A stretch of 64,000 bases of DNA from Candidatus Nanoarchaeia archaeon (GTDB taxonomy: Bacteria > Patescibacteriota > Microgenomatia > Woykebacterales > RBG-16-39-9b). A program made the position numbers and the translations under genes. The number at the start of each line of letters is the position of its first letter. Within the stretch, counting starts at the first letter, position 1. The notes under the pieces are model-generated. The model was not told the origin of the DNA, did not search any database, and saw nothing but the letters and a program-made list of their open reading frames with translations. The stretch covers positions 9,147 to 73,146 of the forward strand of contig DATBWR010000004.1 in NCBI GenBank assembly GCA_036514715.1, in the 5' to 3' direction. Below are positions 1,761-50,363 of this stretch, in pieces.

Positions 1761-3179
1761 ATGCCCAAAGAAAAAACCAAAGTTAGGACTAGGATTGCTC
1801 CGTCACCAACCGGTAGTCCCCACATCGGCACCGCCTACGCAGCCTTATTTAACTATTGTTTTGCCAAGCAAAACAGTGGTGATTTTGTCTTGCGTATTGA
1901 GGATACTGATCGAGCTAGGTTAGTAGAAGGTTCCGAAGAGGAGATTTATGAAGCTTTGAAGTGGCTTGGTTTGGAGCCGGACGAAAGTCCACAAAAGGAG
2001 GGAAAATTTGGACCCTATCGCCAATCGGAAAGGCTCGCAATTTATCGACAACAGCTAGAAAATTTGGTCAAGGAAGGTAAAGCCTATTACTGTGATTGTT
2101 CTCCCGATCGTCTTGAAAAATTGCGCAAAGAACAGCTCTCTAGAGGAGAAGCCCCTCATTACGATCAAAAATGTCGGCAAGAGCCACCCAAAAAGATTAA
2201 TAAGGTTGTAGTACGTTTGGCTGTTCCCCAAACAGGTGAGACTGTAGTTGAGGACAAAATCCATGGTAAAGTGGTCTTCCAAAACAACCTCATCGACGAT
2301 CAAGTACTCTTAAAATCAGATGGCTACCCAACTTACCACCTAGCTAGTGTGGTTGACGATCACTTAATGGAAATCTCCCATGTAATCCGCGCCGAAGAGT
2401 GGCTTTCCAGCACTCCAAAACATGTTTTACTTTACCAAGCCTTTGGTTGGAACTTACCCGAATTTGCCCACCTGCCGCTGCTTCGCAACCCTGATCGCAG
2501 TAAAATTAGTAAACGCAAGAATCCGGTAGCGATCAATTTTTATCGTGAACAAGGTTATTTACCAGAGGCACTACTTAATTTCTTGGGCTTGATGGGTTGG
2601 TCAATGCCAGACGGTAGGGAAATTTTTAGTTTGGATGAGATGGTTAAAAACTTTACCTTCGAAAGAGTTGATCCAAGCGGTCCGGTCTTTGACATAGATA
2701 AACTTTCTTGGTTGAACGGTGAATACATCCGTAAGTTGTCTGACCGGCAGTTGCTTGAGCGGTTAAAACCGTACACAAAATATTCACCAGAGCAAGTTCT
2801 CAAGGTCGTACCGCTGGTTAAAGAAAGACTAAAAAAACTATCAGAGTTCAACTCTCTGACTAGCTATTTTTTTGAAGAGCAGATTGATTTTGATCCTAAA
2901 TTGGCGGTGATAAAAAATCACTCAGAGGAAACGGTCAAGATTTATGAGGATATTAAGCAAACCTTTACTGGTTTGGAACCTTGGGATAAGAATTCTTTGG
3001 AGAAAGCTCTTGAAGTAAAACCACAAGAGTACGGTGTTTCTAAGACAGAGCTTTTTCAAAGTATCCGAGGTACTGTTACCGGTGGATTAACCTCACCTCC
3101 GCTCTACGACACCTTAGAGATGATCGGCAAAGAAAGGGTTGTTTCCAGAATTGGAACAGCGGTAGAGGAACTTAAGTAA
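1761..3179 (+). CDS. gltX: glutamyl-tRNA synthetase
   Basis: Class I signature PSPTGSPHIGTAYAALFNY (HIGH motif) and KISKR (KMSKS motif). A TATAAT at 1749-1754 lies 7 nt before the ATG. Confidence 0.9.
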   Translation: MPKEKTKVRTRIAPSPTGSPHIGTAYAALFNYCFAKQNSGDFVLRIEDTDRARLVEGSEEEIYEALKWLGLEPDESPQKEGKFGPYRQSERLAIYRQQLENLVKEGKAYYCDCSPDRLEKLRKEQLSRGEAPHYDQKCRQEPPKKINKVVVRLAVPQTGETVVEDKIHGKVVFQNNLIDDQVLLKSDGYPTYHLASVVDDHLMEISHVIRAEEWLSSTPKHVLLYQAFGWNLPEFAHLPLLRNPDRSKISKRKNPVAINFYREQGYLPEALLNFLGLMGWSMPDGREIFSLDEMVKNFTFERVDPSGPVFDIDKLSWLNGEYIRKLSDRQLLERLKPYTKYSPEQVLKVVPLVKERLKKLSEFNSLTSYFFEEQIDFDPKLAVIKNHSEETVKIYEDIKQTFTGLEPWDKNSLEKALEVKPQEYGVSKTELFQSIRGTVTGGLTSPPLYDTLEMIGKERVVSRIGTAVEELK

Positions 3180-7073: not shown

Positions 7074-7140
7074 GCAACTTTTAAAAGCGAGTCATTGGAT
7101 AAAGAAATACCAGTGCCAACGCGAAACCTTGACTATAAGC

Positions 7141-7410
7141 TGTATAATCTGTTTAGCACTCAAAAACTAAAAAAAAGGGAATTTATCCGGGACATAGCTA
7201 ATTACCTATGGGGCGAAAAAGCCCTCCGTTTCTTCGGAAACGGGGACCGGTCTGTCTTGGCTGGTAAGAGACCAGCTTCAAACGGTTGTTAAGCGGAAGA
7301 CAGCGCGCTAATTAACAATCGATCTTGCACCCTCAAAACCCGAGCCACTGCGGTGGGGTTGGGTAGTTGTCTGACAGAGGGGCTCCCTGTTACCCGAATC
7401 TTCCACAGGT
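7141..7410 (+). ncRNA. putative tracrRNA-like structured RNA with a 3' anti-repeat (strand tentative)
   Basis: Extended -10 TGTATAAT at 7141-7148. Hairpin CCGTTTC-TTCG-GAAACGG (UUCG tetraloop) at about 7225-7242. Nested stems CTGTCTT...AAGACAG and GCTGGT-aagag-ACCAGC. The stretch 7381-7404 (GGCTCCCTGTTACCCGAATCTTCC) is complementary to repeat nt 6-26, giving 9-bp and 8-bp duplexes. It ends 49 nt before the first repeat. Confidence 0.5.
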
Positions 7411-7453
7411 TCAAGAAGCACGACTCCCGAAAGATTTCAAGCCTAACGGGGTT

Positions 7454-7706
7454 GTTGCATTCGGGTGCAAAACAGGGAGTAGAGTGTAACTTTCAAAAGC
7501 GCTGCCAGAACTATCAACACTAATAAGTTGCATTCGGGTGCAAAACAGGGAGTAGAGTGTAACAACAATCTTGATCATGAAACCACTCTTCATGTAAGTT
7601 GCATTCGGGTGCAAAACAGGGAGTAGAGTGTAACTCAAAAACAATGCTTCCGGTGTTGGCCAGTTTGATGTTGCATTCGGGTGCAAAACAGGGAGTAGAG
7701 TGTAAC
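7454..7706 (+). CRISPR. CRISPR array: 4 identical 37-nt repeats and 3 spacers of 36, 34 and 35 nt (transcribed strand uncertain)
   Basis: Repeat GTTGCATTCGGGTGCAAAACAGGGAGTAGAGTGTAAC occurs at 7454-7490, 7527-7563, 7598-7634 and 7670-7706. It carries an internal palindrome TTGCA-TTCGGG-TGCAA. Spacers are unique within the array. Confidence 0.95.
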
Positions 7707-7710
7707 AAAA

Positions 7711-7750
7711 TGGAGATGGTTTTCCCTTTACCATCTCCACTTTCTTCTTG
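7711..7750 (+). terminator. rho-independent terminator-like hairpin after the array
   Basis: Stem TGGAGATGG (7711-7719) pairs with CCATCTCCA (7731-7739) around an 11-nt loop, followed by CTTTCTTCTT. Confidence 0.6.
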
Positions 7751-7777
7751 ACTTCTCAATCATTTTTCAGTTAAAAC
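7748..7777 (+). promoter_or_regulatory. candidate sigma70-like promoter for cas1
   Basis: TTGACT (7748-7753), 17-nt spacer, TTAAAA (7771-7776). The cas1 start codon (GTG 7784 or ATG 7790) follows closely, so the leader is short or absent. Confidence 0.4.
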
Positions 7778-7783
7778 ATAAGT

Positions 7784-8782
7784 GTGTTAATGCACGAAAC
7801 CCTTTTGATCGATAAACCAGGCACTTTTCTGGGTAAGAAAAGCAGAAGAGTGGTGGTCAAAACTCCTGATTCGACAGAAGAATTTCCTTTGCTAAAAATT
7901 AAAGAGATTAACCTTGTTGGAACCGGTATTTCTTTGTCCGACGACCTAGTTTACCAGGCAGTTAAGCAAGAAGTGCAGATAAATTTTCAGGACAGATTAG
8001 GTAGGGTTTACGCTAGTATAGTCTCACCCTTTCTTAATCAAACAGTGGCAACTGTTAGGGCTCAGATAGGAGCGGAAGACACAGAAAAAGCCGCTGGTCT
8101 TGCCAAGGAGATCGTTCTGGTCAAAATTGCCAACCAGGAAAAACTACTGAGGTATTTTCTTAAGCACCAAAGGGTTTATTATCCGACCAACGCAGAGAAA
8201 ATTGGAGAGTTGAGCAACACCCTAGACTCTTTGGGTGAACAACTGCTAGTTACAAGCTTCAAACCGCTTAATTATCATAATCAATTATTTTCTTTTGAAG
8301 GCAGAGCCTCGGACAGTTATTGGCGAGGGGTTAAGTTGTTGATAGGAGGCAAAGTTGATTTCCCGGGTCGTAAAGGTAGAGGCGCGAAAGATTTGGTGAA
8401 CAGTCTGCTCAATTACGGTTACGCCATTTTGTACTCGAGGGTTTTAGCAGCATTGTTGGCCAACGGCCTTTTACCCTTCGCCGGATTTCTTCACAAAGAC
8501 CGTTCTGGGAAAAGTTCTCTTGTTTTGGATATTATGGAAATCTTTCGCCAGAAGATTGTTGATGAAACTTTGTTGATCTTTTTGAACAAGAAAAAATTGG
8601 AACCTACACTTGACCAAAACACCCTTTTTGCCTTTTCACAAAAAGTAGTTGAGAGATTTTCCTCAACCGGAAGGTTCGTTGATAACAAAAACTACACAGT
8701 GGAGAAAATAATCAGCCTGCAGGTTCAAGGTATTGCCGCCTATCTACGCGGAAATAAAAATCTAAATTTAGTTTCTTTATGA
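7784..8782 (+). CDS. cas1: CRISPR-associated endonuclease Cas1
   Basis: Cas1 hallmark block DLVNSLLNYGYAILYSRVLAALLANGLLPFAGFLHKDRSGKSSLVLDIMEIFRQKIVDE. Start is GTG at 7784 or ATG at 7790. Confidence 0.92.
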   Translation: MLMHETLLIDKPGTFLGKKSRRVVVKTPDSTEEFPLLKIKEINLVGTGISLSDDLVYQAVKQEVQINFQDRLGRVYASIVSPFLNQTVATVRAQIGAEDTEKAAGLAKEIVLVKIANQEKLLRYFLKHQRVYYPTNAEKIGELSNTLDSLGEQLLVTSFKPLNYHNQLFSFEGRASDSYWRGVKLLIGGKVDFPGRKGRGAKDLVNSLLNYGYAILYSRVLAALLANGLLPFAGFLHKDRSGKSSLVLDIMEIFRQKIVDETLLIFLNKKKLEPTLDQNTLFAFSQKVVERFSSTGRFVDNKNYTVEKIISLQVQGIAAYLRGNKNLNLVSL

Positions 8783-9033
8783 AAGTTTTGGTAGTCTACG
8801 ATATTTCCCAAGACAAGGAGCGGGGAAAAGTTGCCGAGATTTGTCTGGATTACGGTCTGGAAAGAATTCAGAAGAGTGCTTTTCTTGGCGAACTTAGCGA
8901 AACTTTACGACAGCGGTTGGTGGGAGAATTGAAGGAAAAGCTAGTAGGTAAAACCTTTAACCTGCAGGTATTTGAGTTAGATAAGAATTCTGCTAAGAAG
9001 AGATTAGTTTTTGAGGCAAAAAAGAAGGGGTAA
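8779..9033 (+). CDS. cas2: CRISPR-associated endoribonuclease Cas2
   Basis: 84 aa beginning MKVLVVYDISQDKERGKVAEI...QKSAF. Overlaps cas1 by 4 nt (ATGA). Confidence 0.9.
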   Translation: MKVLVVYDISQDKERGKVAEICLDYGLERIQKSAFLGELSETLRQRLVGELKEKLVGKTFNLQVFELDKNSAKKRLVFEAKKKG

Positions 9034-9056
9034 TAGCTATCTGGCTACTACCCCTT
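9025..9056. terminator. bidirectional terminator hairpin between the convergent cas2 and effector genes
   Basis: AAGGGGTA (9025-9032) pairs with TACCCCTT (9049-9056) around a 16-nt loop. The hairpin spans both stop codons. It is T-rich on the minus-strand side (CTTCTTTTTTGC). Confidence 0.6.
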
Positions 9057-10497
9057 TGACGAATAACTCCTGTGCTCGACGGGCCAAGTTTAAGGCAGTG
9101 TTGAAACCGGTGTTGTGCCGTGTTCCGCAATTACCGCAATAAACAGTGGGTCCCTTCAGAGAGATTGGTTGATCACCTTCTTTATTGGCCGCTCCGCAAG
9201 TTGAACAAAGCATCTTGGCTGTTGCCGAGTAGACCGAATAAGGTTTAGGCAAACCTTCCTTAACCGCTTTGTAGCTGGTCAGATCGGCGAGTTTCCCAAA
9301 TGGCCAGTATGACAACCTCAGGTTGAGCCGGGGATTGTATCTACCTTTGGGGATGTTGCCTACCTGCTCGACGGCAGGAACGGATTTGAACCTTAAGGCT
9401 TCTTCGACAATCTGTGCCACCTGACGGTAGTGGAAAGTTTCCAGCTCCTGGGAAAAGGGTCCGCCTCGCCGGCGCAGACGTTCCAACCGAGCAAAGTAGG
9501 TTTTCTCGTACCGCCTTGCTGGTTCCTGACGTTGGTGGACGACATTTCCATCACGATTGATAACTACCACGGTTACTAGATGTTCCAAACCAAAAGATAC
9601 ACCCATGAAGTTTTCCACTTCAAGTAGTGGTTTGGTGGGGATCTCACAAGCGACATTGACGAAAATTCTGCCGTTACGTACCAAGAGTTCCACTCGTTTG
9701 GGTTGGAAGTCTTTCTCACGCAGTAGCACTTCCGAGAGCCACTTTTTGTCTGAACGACGGTGAGTTGCTTTCCAAGTGGGTGGGTTATTCTCGCCTCGTA
9801 TGAAAGTAGCCTCACCCCACTTATCAAACTGAAGTGGAAGTAACAAACCGCTTGTTGAGCGGCTTAGACGGGCAATTTCTTTCTCTCCAAAAACCTGCAG
9901 CGCTGGTCCGCGGTCGGGATCGTAGTTATTGGTGATGTCTTCCTGGTGACTACCTCTTGGGAAAAGAGGAAGGTAGAGATAAAGCTGGCCGGTAATTGAT
10001 TGTTCGTAGCAAACGAACGCCCCTGTCCAGACGATTGGAAACTGATCGCCTATACTTGGATAGCTGGTTTTATCCGTAAATTGCGGGTCCAGTTTCCGCT
10101 TCGCATACGAGAGCAGCAAGTCTGCGACCTTGTGGCGCAAACCGTTTTTAACAGCGGAACCAAGTTGGTAACCCCTGAAAGGGGCAATCTCTTCCAGCTT
10201 TCTTAAGACCCGCATATGTCCAGCCGTTCTTTTGATAGGCCGACCCTCTTTATCAAGAAGTTTTTTGCCGTCTGGATCAGTAGGTTCCCACCAAAGTAGT
10301 TCTTGGTAAGGTTCGAACCAACGCAAGCAGTCGGCAGCTGCCTTTCGAACCGATTGGTTAACCCCAAGTAGAAGGGACAATTTTTTCTGGGGCAACCATT
10401 GCCGCCGCCAAAGCTCGCTGCGGGTTCGATTTTCCGGTAAGTCGTTGAGGGGCAAAGACATTGCCAAAGTCAGGTGCAGAGTGTTTTCTTCTGCCAA
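9037..10497 (-). CDS. miniature TnpB/Cas12f(Cas14)-like type V effector candidate (486 aa) with apparently degenerate RuvC catalytic motifs
   Basis: RuvC-I-like MGVSFGLEHLVTVVV. RuvC-II-like AVEQVGNI. LSYWPFGKLADLTSYKAVKEGLP block. Zinc finger CSTCG...CGNCG, followed by HNTGFNTALNLARRA (cf. HxDxNAAxNIARR). The canonical Asp positions read S and G/T. Good SD sequence AAAGGAGAGAG before the ATG. Coding sequence has higher GC (~50%) than cas1/cas2. Confidence 0.7.
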   Translation of the reverse strand: MAEENTLHLTLAMSLPLNDLPENRTRSELWRRQWLPQKKLSLLLGVNQSVRKAAADCLRWFEPYQELLWWEPTDPDGKKLLDKEGRPIKRTAGHMRVLRKLEEIAPFRGYQLGSAVKNGLRHKVADLLLSYAKRKLDPQFTDKTSYPSIGDQFPIVWTGAFVCYEQSITGQLYLYLPLFPRGSHQEDITNNYDPDRGPALQVFGEKEIARLSRSTSGLLLPLQFDKWGEATFIRGENNPPTWKATHRRSDKKWLSEVLLREKDFQPKRVELLVRNGRIFVNVACEIPTKPLLEVENFMGVSFGLEHLVTVVVINRDGNVVHQRQEPARRYEKTYFARLERLRRRGGPFSQELETFHYRQVAQIVEEALRFKSVPAVEQVGNIPKGRYNPRLNLRLSYWPFGKLADLTSYKAVKEGLPKPYSVYSATAKMLCSTCGAANKEGDQPISLKGPTVYCGNCGTRHNTGFNTALNLARRAQELFVKGVVAR

Positions 10498-25762: not shown

Positions 25763-28387
25763 ATGTCGACTAAAGCCAAACCTAAATCCCACGGAAAGGA
25801 GTTTTCTTCCGTAAGGAAGCAGTCCCCGCAGGGGTTTAAGTTTTCGGAAAAGCTGCAGAAAAAGTTGGAAAGCGTAATTGCCGACGAGGCTAAAACTCAG
25901 CTAGATGGGATCAGGCAAAAAGTTTTTATGGACCGCTACTCCTTAAAAGATGGCGAAGGTAAAGCGGTGGAAGAACATCCCGAACAAATGTGGCGTCGGG
26001 TGGCAGCCGGTTTAGCGCAGGTTGAAAAAACTGCCCAAGATCAAAAGGACTGGACCCAAAAATTTTATTCAGCTCTCAAAGATTTTAAATATGTACCCGG
26101 CGGTCGGGTCCTTTCCGGGGCCGGTACTCCCTATGAGGTAACTTTTTACAATTGTTTTGTTATTCCCTCACCCCACGATTCCCGCAACGGCATTGTTGAT
26201 AACTTGAAATTAATGATCGATATTATGAGCCGCTCCGGTGGAGTTGGCATCAACCTTTCTTCTCTTCGTCCACGAGGAGCTCGGGTCAAGAAAGTTAACG
26301 GCACTTCCTCCGGGCCGGTCAATTGGGCAGAGCTTTATTCAACCGCTACGACTGATGTTATTCAACAAGGTGGATCTCGACGTGGTGCCTTGATGCTGAT
26401 GATTGATGACTGGCACCCGGATATTGAAGAGTTTATCGAAGTTAAAAAAGACCTTTCCCGAATTAATGGAGCTAACCTTTCAGTTTGCGCTTCGGATGAG
26501 TTTATGGAAGCAGTGAAAAAGAACGCCGATTGGGACCTTTACTTCCCTGATCTCACCGATCCGGATTACGACCGGGTTTGGGACGGCGATATTGAAAAAT
26601 GGAAAGCTCTAGGCAAAAAAGTCGTTCTCTACAAAACTGTTAAAGCAGCCGAAGTTTGGGAAAAGATTTGTCAGGCGGCTTGGGCTTCGGCCGAACCGGG
26701 TTTGCACTTTATTGGTCGGAGTAACTCTCGTAGCAACACTTGGTATTTTGAAAAACTCATTGCCACTAACCCCTGCGGCGAACAGCCTCTTGGGGCTTGG
26801 GCGGTATGTAATTTAGGGGCGATGAATTTGTCAGCTTTCGTTAACGAAAACAGCGAGTTTGACTACCAGGATTTGGAAGACAAGGTGCGGATTGCTATCC
26901 GGATGATGGACAATGTTATTGATGCAACCGGTTACTACTTCCCGGAAAATAAGGCTCAACAGATGGGCATCCGACGCACTGGTTTAGGAACCATGGGTTT
27001 GGGCGATGCTTTAATTAAAATGAAGTTGCGTTACGGTGCAGATGAGGCTCAAGGCGTAATTGAAAAAATCTACAAGACCATTCGTGATGCTGCCTACAGT
27101 GAAAGCGCTGCCCTTTCAGTTGAAAAAGGATCTTTCCCCAATTACAAAAAAGCAAAATACTTACAAGGTTGGTTCATCAAAAAACTTCCTAAAGAAATTC
27201 GTGATCTGATCGCCAAAAACGGCATCCGCAACGCAGTTCTTCTTACCCAAGCTCCCACCGGAACCACCAGTTTACTTTCCGGTGTCTCTAGCGGCATTGA
27301 GCCGGTTTATGATTTTGCCATGGTACGTCGGGATCGCACTGGTGAACACGTTCTTTATCACCCCCTTTATGAAGCTTGGAAAAAAGCCAATCCAGAGGTA
27401 GAGGTTGCTCCGGACTATTTTGTTAGTGCTAACGATTTGACTCCTGAAGATCATGTAAAAGTACAGGCCCTGGTACAGGATTACACTGATTCTTCTATTT
27501 CTAAGACTGTTAACGCACCCAATGCCCACACGGTTGAGGAAGTTCGACAGCTTTACATGCAGGCTTATGAACTGGGGTGCAAGGGCGTTACCTACATGAG
27601 GGACGGTTCCCGCGAAGGAGTGCTTTCTCACGAAGCCGGAGAGAAAACTAGTAGTGAGCACTCTGCAGCGGCTACCCTCCAACCGGTCTACTTGCGAAAG
27701 AGACCCGATTATCTTCACGGAGTGACGCGGAGGATTGCAACTCCAGTGGGACACGCCTTTGTGACTATTAATGAAGATGAGGCTGGTAATCCTTTTGAAG
27801 TTTTCATCAACGTTGGCAAGGCCGGCAGCGATATCACTGCGGATGCGGAAGCAATCGGTCGGTTAATTTCTTTGGCGCTACGTATCCCTTCGAATTACTC
27901 GCCCGCCGAAGTAGTGCAACAAGTGGTTAACCAACTCTCCGGAATTGGTGGCAGCAGTTCCCGTGGTTTTGGTATTGACCGCATCCACTCACTAGCCGAT
28001 GCCCTTTCCAAGGTCTTGGCAGAATATACTGGAAAGGGCAGCACCTACCCCTCTGTCGAAGAAGGAAAGGTAGCAGCTACTAACGGTAACGGTTTGCCTG
28101 CAACTAACGGGCATACTAATGGCAACACCAACGGTCAAAATAACGGGCACACAAGGGACGGTCAGGCAATTGTTCAAGCTAAAGAGTCGGTCGAAGTAGG
28201 TGAAGCCCCTGCCCTGATAAGCGAGCTTTCAGGAGGGCAAATTTTGCAGGCTTCAGGTGTTGAAAGTGAAAAGCCAATGGGCTTGCAGCCCAAGCGCTTT
28301 GACCTTTGCCCCAAATGTGGAGTGGCTTCCTTTGTTCACGAAGAAGGTTGCAGTAAGTGCATGAACTGCGGCCACTCCGAGTGCTAG
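25763..28387 (+). CDS. nrdJ: adenosylcobalamin-dependent (class II) ribonucleotide reductase
   Basis: NPCGEQPL active-site loop and a C-terminal Cys cluster CPKCG...CSKCMNCGHSEC. Low-complexity insert ATNGNGLPATNGHTNGNTNGQNNGHT. Confidence 0.9.
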   Translation: MSTKAKPKSHGKEFSSVRKQSPQGFKFSEKLQKKLESVIADEAKTQLDGIRQKVFMDRYSLKDGEGKAVEEHPEQMWRRVAAGLAQVEKTAQDQKDWTQKFYSALKDFKYVPGGRVLSGAGTPYEVTFYNCFVIPSPHDSRNGIVDNLKLMIDIMSRSGGVGINLSSLRPRGARVKKVNGTSSGPVNWAELYSTATTDVIQQGGSRRGALMLMIDDWHPDIEEFIEVKKDLSRINGANLSVCASDEFMEAVKKNADWDLYFPDLTDPDYDRVWDGDIEKWKALGKKVVLYKTVKAAEVWEKICQAAWASAEPGLHFIGRSNSRSNTWYFEKLIATNPCGEQPLGAWAVCNLGAMNLSAFVNENSEFDYQDLEDKVRIAIRMMDNVIDATGYYFPENKAQQMGIRRTGLGTMGLGDALIKMKLRYGADEAQGVIEKIYKTIRDAAYSESAALSVEKGSFPNYKKAKYLQGWFIKKLPKEIRDLIAKNGIRNAVLLTQAPTGTTSLLSGVSSGIEPVYDFAMVRRDRTGEHVLYHPLYEAWKKANPEVEVAPDYFVSANDLTPEDHVKVQALVQDYTDSSISKTVNAPNAHTVEEVRQLYMQAYELGCKGVTYMRDGSREGVLSHEAGEKTSSEHSAAATLQPVYLRKRPDYLHGVTRRIATPVGHAFVTINEDEAGNPFEVFINVGKAGSDITADAEAIGRLISLALRIPSNYSPAEVVQQVVNQLSGIGGSSSRGFGIDRIHSLADALSKVLAEYTGKGSTYPSVEEGKVAATNGNGLPATNGHTNGNTNGQNNGHTRDGQAIVQAKESVEVGEAPALISELSGGQILQASGVESEKPMGLQPKRFDLCPKCGVASFVHEEGCSKCMNCGHSEC

Positions 28388-28439
28388 TTGACAAGACTTT
28401 AACAAACCTTTAGAGTGAGTATACTTTAAAAATTTAGAG

Positions 28440-28545
28440 CAAAGGATTAATTGGTGAAAGGCCGTGGAATTCGGCCGGACTGCCGGTACTGTTATACCCA
28501 GAACCCAACCTTTGTGTTCCTTCGAGCAAGGGAGGTGTTGATGAG
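28440..28545 (+). ncRNA. structured leader, possible cobalamin-riboswitch-like element (low confidence)
   Basis: GGTGAAAGG, hairpin GGCCG-UGGAAUU-CGGCC (cf. the GUGAAAAUC loop of B12 elements), and GCCGGUACUGU (cf. GCCACUGU). It lies immediately upstream of the terminator at 28554-28590. Confidence 0.3.
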
Positions 28546-38160: not shown

Positions 38161-38237
38161 GGCGCGTTCGTCTAGAGGCCTAGGATATCGGGTTTTCATC
38201 CCGGAGATCAGGGGTTCGAATCCCCTACGCGCTACCA
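38161..38237 (+). tRNA. tRNA-Glu (anticodon UUC), CCA encoded
   Basis: GGCGCGTTCGTCTAGAGGCCTAGGATATCGGGTTTTCATCCCGGAGATCAGGGGTTCGAATCCCCTACGCGCTACCA, with canonical arms and a G1-U72 wobble pair. Confidence 0.9.
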
Positions 38238-48977: not shown

Positions 48978-50363
48978 TTACTTATAGAGTACGCGCTTAG
49001 TTATGGCGTTGCCGAACAGAGCGATGAAGGGACGTCTGAGAAACCCAGGGATGATGTAGAGCGGGTTCTGACGTCTCAGGATCACTCCCACAGGTGGGTC
49101 ATCACGCAGGTAGTAATTGGTTTCCACCCTCACTTGGGTGAAGTCCAAACCGCGGTAATATTCCAGCTCTGTGTCGGCGTATGCCTCACTCTTTCTCCAT
49201 GGTGACCAGTTAGGATCGATCGCTTTTCTCACGTCACCCACAGTCAGGGTGGCGTATTCCTGAGGAGTTGGTGCGCGACGTCCGGATTGACAGTAGAGCG
49301 AGCAGATGTTCTTGTAATCCGGAACTCTGCTTCCGACCAAGACTTGTCTGTATCTTGAAAGAAGCAGTAGGAAAGTCTGGGCAACGATTACAGTACTGGC
49401 TCCAGTTATGCTGTACCTTGGCGGGACGCTAAGGGTTATTCCCCAAAGGTCCTTGCCAGATTTGTTAGTGCCAAACCTGTCAGCGATGCCATCGAAGTTA
49501 ACTGCAGGTTTTTGCAGAATCTCCTTGGCGTCGCAGGGAGTTGCCATACCGACAGCAATTACTCTTCCCAACCTGTTGCGAGCGACGATCACTCCGTCTG
49601 GGAAGGAACGTATCCTTTGGGCGTAAGTTTCAGCCGATCGTTCATGCCCCCTACCCCAAGCCAGACGTTCAACCGAGGCGATGTCTGGTGCATCCTCGAT
49701 TCGCGCTAGGCCGGCGGTGATTTCAGCTCTTTCTACCCTTGTGAACAGAAGCGGCCGGCTCCCCTCTCGCAAGAAAGGCGGCCTAAGGTTGGCCTCCACT
49801 ACATAGGCTTCCATCACGAACCAGAGGCCGTAAGTCAAGACCAAGTCAAAGATCACCAGACCGAGCCCAAAAGCAGGGAGACCTTCGTAACCAGCAACCA
49901 GTACGTAGGTCAAAGGTAATCCGGCAAAGAGGCGGTTAAGCCGACCAAGCCAGACCGTCAGTTTTGACGAAAGCCTCAAGTCAATAAGGCTCAGATTGTA
50001 GGCTGACCAGAGACCCCAGAAGAGCCCTGCTGGCCACCGAAGTGGGTTTTTCTTGAGGTTTTCTAAAGCCTTACTCGCGTAGGGTGGCCAGACCGACCTT
50101 TCTACAGAAAAGATCCATATTAGGGTTATCGTCAGAACTGACTCTGAGATGATTAGCAGAGTTCCGTAGAACACTACGTTTACGCCGTAGGGCTCAAGAG
50201 TCTCTACCTCAATTGCCTTCTCCACGATGTAGCCTAGTACGACAAAGTACAGAACAAGACCCAGAAGAAGGGCCTTGTTTATCCAGGATTTAGCTCTCTC
50301 GTTTAACACAATCCTCTCCTTGTTTTTGATTTTTGTACAATTAAATTGTGGTGTGCCAATCAA
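48978..50363 (-). CDS. hypothetical polytopic membrane protein with C-terminal soluble domain (GC-rich island)
   Basis: 461 aa with about 5 N-terminal TM helices; ~52% GC. Confidence 0.5.
   Translation of the reverse strand: MIGTPQFNCTKIKNKERIVLNERAKSWINKALLLGLVLYFVVLGYIVEKAIEVETLEPYGVNVVFYGTLLIISESVLTITLIWIFSVERSVWPPYASKALENLKKNPLRWPAGLFWGLWSAYNLSLIDLRLSSKLTVWLGRLNRLFAGLPLTYVLVAGYEGLPAFGLGLVIFDLVLTYGLWFVMEAYVVEANLRPPFLREGSRPLLFTRVERAEITAGLARIEDAPDIASVERLAWGRGHERSAETYAQRIRSFPDGVIVARNRLGRVIAVGMATPCDAKEILQKPAVNFDGIADRFGTNKSGKDLWGITLSVPPRYSITGASTVIVAQTFLLLLSRYRQVLVGSRVPDYKNICSLYCQSGRRAPTPQEYATLTVGDVRKAIDPNWSPWRKSEAYADTELEYYRGLDFTQVRVETNYYLRDDPPVGVILRRQNPLYIIPGFLRRPFIALFGNAITKRVLYK

Follow-up and report, generated by a model that had tools for sequence, protein, structure and literature searches.

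Among the closest described systems to the locus presented here are those of Cas12f1 (Un1/Cas14a1, AsCas12f, SpCas12f1 and CnCas12f1), in which a trans-activating CRISPR RNA (tracrRNA) forms a long (about 130-200 nt) multi-stem scaffold beside the CRISPR array and carries a 3' anti-repeat, which pairs with the repeat in a long bulged duplex. Cas12f1 is listed as tracrRNA-dependent, and the guides of Cas12b, Cas12f, Cas12g and Cas12l combine a long bulged repeat:anti-repeat stem with a short pseudoknotted stem of 5-7 bp (PMC11246509). Nuclease-dead relatives of Cas12f were described by Hoffmann et al., namely the dCas12f-σE systems and a CRISPR-associated dCas12f cluster; for the latter, covariance revealed putative guide RNAs in the intergenic DNA on the upstream side of the arrays (PMC13472631). 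The DNA analysed here is a stretch of 64,000 nucleotides (nt) from contig DATBWR010000004.1, labelled Candidatus Nanoarchaeia archaeon, and is referred to as the window. An element on its forward strand (7189-7404, +) is very probably the tracrRNA of a compact type V CRISPR-Cas locus with the Cas12f-like effector Cas14u.3. Each property of a tracrRNA that can be addressed from sequence was found in this element, which supports the assignment; its expression and its role in the maturation of CRISPR RNA (crRNA) are predicted.

The tracrRNA core comprises 216 nt, from GGGAC to GAAUCUUCC, and is supported by a seven-locus alignment, covariation, a covariance model and the z-score of the fold. The locus has the order tracrRNA, array, cas1, cas2 and convergent effector, and the element is located outside the array, 49 nt upstream of repeat 1. 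All sequence features listed below were re-read in the window between 6600 and 8100, and the motifs were located at the coordinates given. Homologous loci were taken from contigs encoding homologues of the effector (41-58% identical to that of the window) and are designated L001 (same sequence as L004), L002 (same sequence as L003), L005, L007, L008 and L009. The same element was present at the same place in every homologous locus whose contig extends far enough, which applies to six loci besides the window. The order common to these loci is promoter, element, leader of 30-110 nt, array, terminator hairpin, cas1, cas2 and convergent effector. The covariance model built from the alignment matched each locus strongly once (E 1e-37 to 3e-57), without any further match in the window. 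In L011, it gave a weak match (E = 0.18) within the coding region of the effector, which was regarded as spurious. No match to the conserved 5' motif of the tracrRNA was found in viral contigs. Conservation, covariation and co-evolution with the repeat in the six other loci provide the decisive evidence that the element is not a product of chance.

The anti-repeat (7383-7399, +) consists of two blocks, CUCCCUGUU, which would pair with nt 18-26 of the repeat, and ACCCGAAU, which would pair with nt 6-13. At the DNA level, the blocks CTCCCTGTT (7383-7391) and ACCCGAAT (7392-7399) are exact complements of these repeat positions, as had been proposed in a first-pass annotation of the window, including the bulged GCAA. 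The predicted duplex has 17 bp with the repeat GCAA (nt 14-17) as a 4-nt bulge (RNAduplex, -28.6 kcal/mol), and leaves the 3'-terminal 11 nt of the repeat as well as the spacer unpaired. Among 25,464 segments of 30 nt, covering the 64 kb on both strands, the anti-repeat segment was the best partner of the repeat (-30.3 kcal/mol; mean -11.7, standard deviation 3.6). A site at 49855-49895 (-) is complementary to almost the whole repeat (-32.5 kcal/mol) and shares the blocks GTTAC, CTCCCTG and TTTTG; it is located inside an open reading frame (ORF) of 461 aa without Pfam match (48978-50363, -) and was treated as a probable chance match. Since this coding-region site near 49.88 kb scores nearly equal, the duplex energy alone is not decisive.

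A comparison between the loci was more informative. In every locus, the segment 3' of a conserved GAGGG pairs with its own repeat in two blocks. When 26-nt segments of the seven loci were assigned to the repeats in all 5040 ways, the cognate assignment was the single best (mean -23.3 kcal/mol versus -15.3 ± 1.8 kcal/mol over all assignments); anti-repeat and repeat thus evolve together, the property by which a tracrRNA is defined. Conservation ends directly 3' of the anti-repeat with the motif GAAUCUUCC (7396-7404, +), which reads AUCUUCC in 5/7 loci, ACUUUCC in L001 and AUCUGCG in L009. This motif is kept in nearly all loci though the preceding anti-repeat varies in length.

The loci were aligned using MAFFT and folded using RNAalifold; the interleaved helix CUGUCUU/AAGACAG was added and the pairs were counted thereafter. 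The resulting model contains 52 pairs in 9 helices, with 91% of the cells paired over the seven loci. Compensatory changes on both sides were found for 34 of the 52 pairs, compared to 7-16 when the partners were slid by 1-3 columns, and none of 500 shuffles was as good as the observed covariation. An independent count on the fold of RNAalifold itself gave 34 compensatory pairs out of 50. The 216-nt core is more stable than its shuffles (z = -2.9; 1/200). The plus strand folds better than the minus strand (z = -2.3 versus -1.3), and the excess of G-U over A-C cells (18 versus 5) also favours the plus strand. According to these data, the RNA is a conserved scaffold with at least nine helices, two of which (H4 and H5) are interleaved in the model. 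Thus, the structured, tracrRNA-like RNA proposed in the first-pass annotation was recovered in every homologous locus reached, with covarying helices and an anti-repeat tracking its own repeat, and the neighbouring effector of the window has a predicted Cas12f fold.

All helices are located on the plus strand. H1 (CAUAG/CUAUG with the loop CUAAUUAC, 7193-7210) covaries to CUAGG/CCUAG in L005 and to CCCAG/CUGGG in L009, and is followed by H2 (GGGC-GAAAAA-GCCC, 7211-7224), which was identified from alignment and covariation. The variable hairpin H3 (CCGUUUC-UUCG-GAAACGG, 7226-7243) occurs at the same position in L001, L002, L005 and L008 and is the least conserved helix, since sequence and length of the stem differ per locus and the loop has the sequence GUAA in L001 and a length of 11 nt in L002. 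H4 spans 7252-7303, with CUGUCUU (7252-7258) pairing to AAGACAG (7297-7303), and shows compensatory changes in L008 (CUGCCUU/AGGCAG) and L005 (CUGUCC/GGACAG). It encloses H4b, GCUGGU (7260-7265)/ACCAGC (7271-7276), where 5/6 pairs covary. The stems H3, H4 and H4b had already been read from the window in the first-pass annotation. H5 spans 7283-7321 (arms 7283-7295 and 7304-7321) with 11/12 compensatory pairs. The nearly invariant H7, CCCUC (7330-7334)/GAGGG (7377-7381), spans 7330-7381 and encloses the hairpin H6 (7338-7364; 8/10 pairs covary) and the 3-bp hairpin H8 (7368-7376; 3/3 pairs covary).

As read from the alignment, the 3' arm of H4 lies within the 8-nt loop of H5, so that the two helices interleave; both covary. 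This arrangement is either a strained pseudoknot or a pair of alternative folds. Several points weigh against parts of the model and of the assignment. Between H4 and the inner part of H5 there are only 0-1 nt, so that the two may not coexist; for the middle region of L009, two folds are possible. The ends, the strand and the processing of the RNA were all deduced from sequence. The comparison comprises seven distinct sequences only, one of them truncated at the 5' side by the contig end.

A G-rich segment at 7241-7250 (GGGGAC in the window, GGGAGAC in L001, GUGGGAC in L002 and GGAGAC in L007) resembles the GGGAG box of the repeat and can pair with the anti-repeat at 7381-7388. This pairing was predicted by RNAalifold (columns 67-70/243-246) and in the minimum-energy fold of the window sequence, and may represent a self-masking state of the free tracrRNA. 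A further candidate pairing, GACCGUU with AACGGU, was rejected, because its CGG is already used in the covarying helix H5.

The element shares with the tracrRNAs of Cas12f1 the long multi-stem scaffold beside the array, the 3' anti-repeat in a long bulged duplex and the fold of the effector; here, too, the 3' end of the repeat may be engaged in a short second contact. In contrast to these similarities, no sequence or Rfam similarity was detectable, the set of helices is different, and H4 and H5 interleave inside the Cas14u.3 tracrRNA. Rfam searches, permissive around the element and at the gathering threshold over the whole window, returned no family matching the element. The first-pass annotation had pointed to a UUCG-capped stem "shortly upstream" of the anti-repeat as reminiscent of the Cas12f1 tracrRNA. 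This stem is H3, which lies about 140 nt away from the anti-repeat, and the string in common with the Cas12f1 tracrRNA, UUUCUUCGGAAA, falls in this non-conserved hairpin. Since H3 is the least conserved helix, the likeness is superficial and the suggested kinship was dropped. Judged by helix conservation and the Rfam searches, with no alignment to the Cas12f1 sequence made, the element is not considered a homologue of the Cas12f1 tracrRNA, though it would work like a type V-F tracrRNA.

The candidate for the second contact is the loop of H1, whose UUAC (7202-7205) is the complement of the GUAA that ends the repeat. No other position of the tracrRNA offers 4 nt complementary to the repeat tail that keep the same register in 6/6 full-length loci, and the change from UUGC/GCAA elsewhere to UUAC/GUAA in the window amounts to one compensatory change. 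Hence, the H1 loop and the repeat tail are a candidate for a short second repeat:anti-repeat contact. The proposed contact has only 4 bp, is located in a hairpin loop, unlike the short contact of Cas12f1, and rests on one compensatory event, which weighs against it. A second anti-repeat within the 5' extension of the window RNA (GUUUAGCACUC versus GAGUGUAAC) had no counterpart in the 5' extensions of the other loci and was rejected as a chance match. In L005 and L008, the promoter is so close that the RNA probably starts at GGGAC, which also speaks against an anti-repeat in the 5' extension.

The effector gene (9037-10497, -) encodes 486 aa and is convergent to cas1 (7784-8782, +; Pfam Cas_Cas1, E = 1e-61; TIGR00287, E = 3e-64) and cas2 (8779-9033, +; Pfam CRISPR_Cas2, E = 2e-16). 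The protein is 100% identical to GenBank QBM02146.1, "Cas14u.3 [uncultured archaeon]", and the same sequence is deposited as HEY4694500.1, labelled Candidatus Nanoarchaeia. The Cas12f model of PADLOC matches over the full length (E = 7e-102), while the Pfam domain Cas12f1-like_TNB scored below the cut-off (22.5 versus 26.3 bits). An AlphaFold2 model of the monomer (predicted local distance difference test, pLDDT, 74) gave AsCas12f (E = 1e-17), SpCas12f1, Un1Cas12f1 and OsCas12f as best matches in Foldseek, with E between 1e-17 and 1e-14 and 14-17% identity for the Cas12f proteins. Thus, PADLOC and Foldseek agree on a compact type V-F effector (400-700 aa, TnpB-like RuvC and zinc ribbon), and both the best structural matches and the PADLOC model point to Cas12f, a tracrRNA-dependent type of partner.

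A sequence search of the PDB returned weak matches to the C-terminal half only (TranC, TnpB and Cas12f), and Cas14u.3 differs from Cas12f1 in that by sequence search only this half detectably matches proteins outside its own family. Among 5.8 billion proteins, this family has 12 members. When 1.84 billion representatives were searched with a profile, matches beyond the RuvC/TNB half were limited to two full-length proteins and a 257-aa fragment from the N-terminus, and no full-length relatives outside the 12-protein family were found in those sequence searches. The element is considered, with high confidence though on predicted grounds, a real tracrRNA of a rare and divergent Cas12f-like system.

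The catalytic sites were determined from the alignment of the 12 family members and from alignments to ISDra2 TnpB, LaTranC and the TnpB-like chain 9nzp. At RuvC-I, the canonical GVDVG is GV[SA][FL]G in the family, i.e., the Asp is changed to Ser or Ala in 12/12 members (S301 in the window). The RuvC-II Glu is kept in 11/12 members. At RuvC-III, the canonical DxNAA is [GNT]xN[AT]A, and the Asp is replaced by Gly, Asn or Thr in 12/12 members (G464 in the window). An intact RuvC D-E-D triad was therefore not found in the effector, which sets Cas14u.3 apart from Cas12f1. Since the aspartates of RuvC-I and RuvC-III are lost in all family members, the effector is probably nuclease-dead, despite the presence of cas1-cas2 and of spacers differing between the loci. 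Alternatively, a rearranged active site is possible, as rearranged RuvC active sites are known in TnpB clades (PMC10691335).

The nuclease-dead dCas12f relatives mentioned above (PMC13472631) also combine a Cas12f fold with an impaired RuvC site. They differ in being close to CnCas12f, in their origin from Bacteroidota and in their C-terminal truncations, and those associated with σE use a single guide without a tracrRNA. Cas14u.3 has an intact C-terminus and zinc ribbon, its aspartates are replaced and not deleted, and cas1-cas2 are present; moreover, the family is unrelated to the dCas12f relatives by sequence (CnCas12f 8hr5, E = 0.007). Cas12c, Cas12m and Cas12k resemble Cas14u.3 in a likely RNA-guided DNA binding without cleavage, Cas12c and Cas12k in the use of a tracrRNA, and Cas12k also in its defective RuvC site. 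In Cas12c and Cas12m, the RuvC site stays active for the processing of crRNA, and Tn7-like genes are the partners of Cas12k. Unlike for Cas12k, no transposition genes flank the Cas14u.3 loci, and conserved partner genes were not found either among the homologous contigs and the window.

Upstream of the element in the window, the putative promoter of the tracrRNA contains the -10 hexamer TATAAT (7143-7148, +) within TGTATAAT at 7141-7148. At the equivalent position of the homologous loci, TTGACA-N16/17-TAnnnT was found, and the promoter matches upstream of the element amounted to 11/12 in L001, 12/12 in L002, 9/12 (with TG) in L008 and 12/12 in L009. Consensus scans flagged neither a promoter nor a terminator on the plus strand between anti-repeat and repeat 1 in the window, L001, L002, L008 and L009; for the leader of the window (7405-7453, +; 49 nt), the lack of a promoter had been noted in the first-pass annotation as well. 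The leader is poorly conserved, and anti-repeat and leader together comprise ~50-100 nt in the homologues. In the CRISPR array (7454-7706, +), three spacers of 36, 34 and 35 nt separate four 37-nt repeats of identical sequence. The array is followed by the hairpin GGAGAUGGU/ACCAUCUCC (7712-7749, +; stem arms 7712-7720 and 7730-7738) with a U-rich tail, which is a likely intrinsic terminator, in agreement with the earlier proposal. Terminators after the arrays were flagged by the scan in L001 and L009 and are visible by eye in L002, L007 and L008. From promoters upstream of the element, leaders devoid of promoters and terminators after the arrays, the tracrRNA may well be co-transcribed with the array, as previously suggested, with some termination or processing in the leader being likely.

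Several findings weigh against such a common transcript, and some of them would fit a tracrRNA that forms a separate unit. The promoter of the window consists of the -10 hexamer alone, and the promoter scan did not flag the site. What had been annotated as an extended -10 is present as the string TGTATAAT, but its TG abuts TATAAT directly and thus departs from the canonical TGnTATAAT; a -35 at a distance of 16-18 nt is missing, and a TTGACT is found only 8 nt upstream. In L005, a terminator-like hairpin (7-8 bp) with UUUUCU stands immediately before repeat 1, and the leaders of L002, L007 and L008 contain stable hairpins of -18 to -23 kcal/mol. Furthermore, a transcript made only together with the array gives one tracrRNA for several repeats, a stoichiometry problem unless termination or leader cleavage is frequent. 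The domain of the organism is uncertain, with an archaeal label at the NCBI and a bacterial-looking gene content, which weakens the σ70 promoter reasoning for the window itself. If the tracrRNA ended or were made independently in the leader, with the array having its own non-consensus promoter, the tracrRNA would be in excess over the crRNA and the stoichiometry problem would be removed; unusual promoters may escape consensus scans. This arrangement is nevertheless considered rather doubtful, as the leaders contain no promoter-like site, no terminator was flagged before repeat 1 in the five loci scanned, and in L001 the distance from anti-repeat to repeat 1 is only about 25-35 nt.

Further observations concern the promoters and the origin of the DNA. 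In the window (7129-7148) and in L005 (about 2745-2770, -), only 7-8 nt separate a TTGAC(T/A) box from a perfect TATAAT downstream of it, and the other four loci have the normal promoter spacing of 16-17 nt. In L008, the terminator hairpin that follows the array is overlapped by a 12/12 consensus promoter (2968-2996, -) a short way upstream of cas1, which suggests a separate transcription unit for cas1-cas2. Bacterial-looking genes include a bacterial-type anticodon domain of glutamyl-tRNA synthetase (1761-3179) and an adenosylcobalamin (AdoCbl) riboswitch (28439-28515) in the window, and SecA and a σ70 protein on the contig of L001. Because of this gene content, the archaeal label may be wrong.

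Assuming co-transcription of tracrRNA and array, the following mechanism is proposed. Transcription would start a few nt after TATAAT at 7143-7148, cross the 49-nt leader and the array and stop at the hairpin at 7712-7749, so that the 5' part of the pre-crRNA would contain the tracrRNA. Pairing of the anti-repeat would occur either in cis to repeat 1 or in trans to any of the repeats, and a host RNase, most likely RNase III, would cut the repeat:anti-repeat duplexes. The effector, probably a dimer like Cas12f, would bind the scaffold together with the repeat tail and the spacer. The H1 loop UUAC may pair with the 3' GUAA of the repeat, analogous to the short stem of Cas12b/f/g/l guides. As two of the three RuvC carboxylates are missing from the effector, the complex would probably bind its DNA target but not cleave it.

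The guide may also act in cis only, with scaffold, leader, repeat 1 and spacer 1 forming a natural single guide like the omega RNA (also right-end RNA, reRNA) of TnpB and the other spacers being little used. When anti-repeat, leader and repeat 1 were folded together, the minimum-energy fold was the repeat:anti-repeat duplex in 7/7 loci, with the last 5-12 nt of the repeat free. This cis fold resembles a scaffold split by an insertion, and omega RNAs, which consist of a structured scaffold followed by the guide, are the evolutionary source of type V guide scaffolds. The arrays are very short (1-7 spacers), and a fusion of tracrRNA and half-repeat has been proposed for relatives of Cas12f (PMC10691335). 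Nevertheless, a guide acting in cis only is improbable, since the repeats within each array are kept identical and complementary to the anti-repeat, and the presence of cas1-cas2 and the different spacers of the loci indicate a working multi-spacer array. Omega RNAs are encoded on the tnpB strand, overlapping the 3' end of that gene, and have a single fixed guide. In contrast, the element of the window is encoded on the strand opposite to the effector gene, 2.7 kb from the 3' end of the latter, and precedes an array with several spacers; hence, it was not classified as an omega RNA.

A function other than that of a guide, either as a cis-regulatory leader structure or as the coding region of a 65-aa ORF (7095-7292), would fit the location in the 5' region of the array unit and the presence of this ORF in the window, but is highly improbable, as a regulatory leader does not need an anti-repeat co-evolving with the repeat, stop-free stretches in the homologues differ in frame and position, differences in hairpin length are not multiples of 3, helix substitutions are compensatory, and no Rfam family matched. 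In the first-pass annotation, the ORF had already been taken as probably non-coding.

Cas14u.3 was reportedly catalogued in 2018. In the literature searched, which did not comprise Harrington et al. 2018 or patents, no description of a tracrRNA for Cas14u.3 was found. The element supplies a covariation-supported sequence and structure model of the guide scaffold for an uncharacterised miniature effector, and such a model is a prerequisite for reconstituting the Cas14u.3 system. A layout such as this one, in which the tracrRNA immediately precedes the array on one strand, with putatively one promoter and a short leader, has been regarded as the origin of tracr-repeat fusions, which becomes testable here in a natural locus. 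If the loss of the RuvC residues is real, the effector would be a natural programmable DNA binder of 486 aa that is still acquiring spacers, which bears on cleavage-free interference and on compact scaffolds for CRISPR interference (CRISPRi) or base editors. A more far-reaching proposal, which is tentative as a whole, is that Cas14u.3-type loci are an adaptive, DNA-binding-only form of type V: a RuvC-dead, Cas12f-like effector would be kept together with cas1-cas2, one promoter would drive a tracr-leader-array transcript, repeat 1 folded on the anti-repeat would represent a natural single guide and a living intermediate from omega RNA to split tracrRNA/crRNA, and H4/H5 would be a pseudoknot or conformational switch.

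Concerning the arrays and cas genes of the homologous loci, the repeats are kept identical and the spacers differ between the loci. The repeat nearest to cas1 is degenerate in L002, L005, L007 and L008, and thus the leader end is on the side of the tracrRNA. The first 24 nt of each of the three window spacers had no exact match in viral contigs, and no near matches to any spacer were found in the DNA sequences analysed here. In L007, cas1 is reduced to remnants broken by stops and cas2 is absent (7748-8100, reading the minus strand); tracrRNA and array are retained. Genes of the PD-(D/E)XK type (Cas4-like) adjoin the tracrRNA side in L001 (13410-14117) and L008 (4189-5717), not in the window, and may be an optional cas4.

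In the surroundings of the element, a 30-nt inverted repeat (7091-7120/7916-7945, 83% complementary) brackets tracrRNA and array, with one arm inside cas1. It had no counterpart in four homologous loci and was treated as a chance match. The match to the AdoCbl-II riboswitch (28439-28515, +) is located immediately 3' of a ribonucleotide reductase gene (25763-28387, +), and a tRNA is present at 38161-38234.

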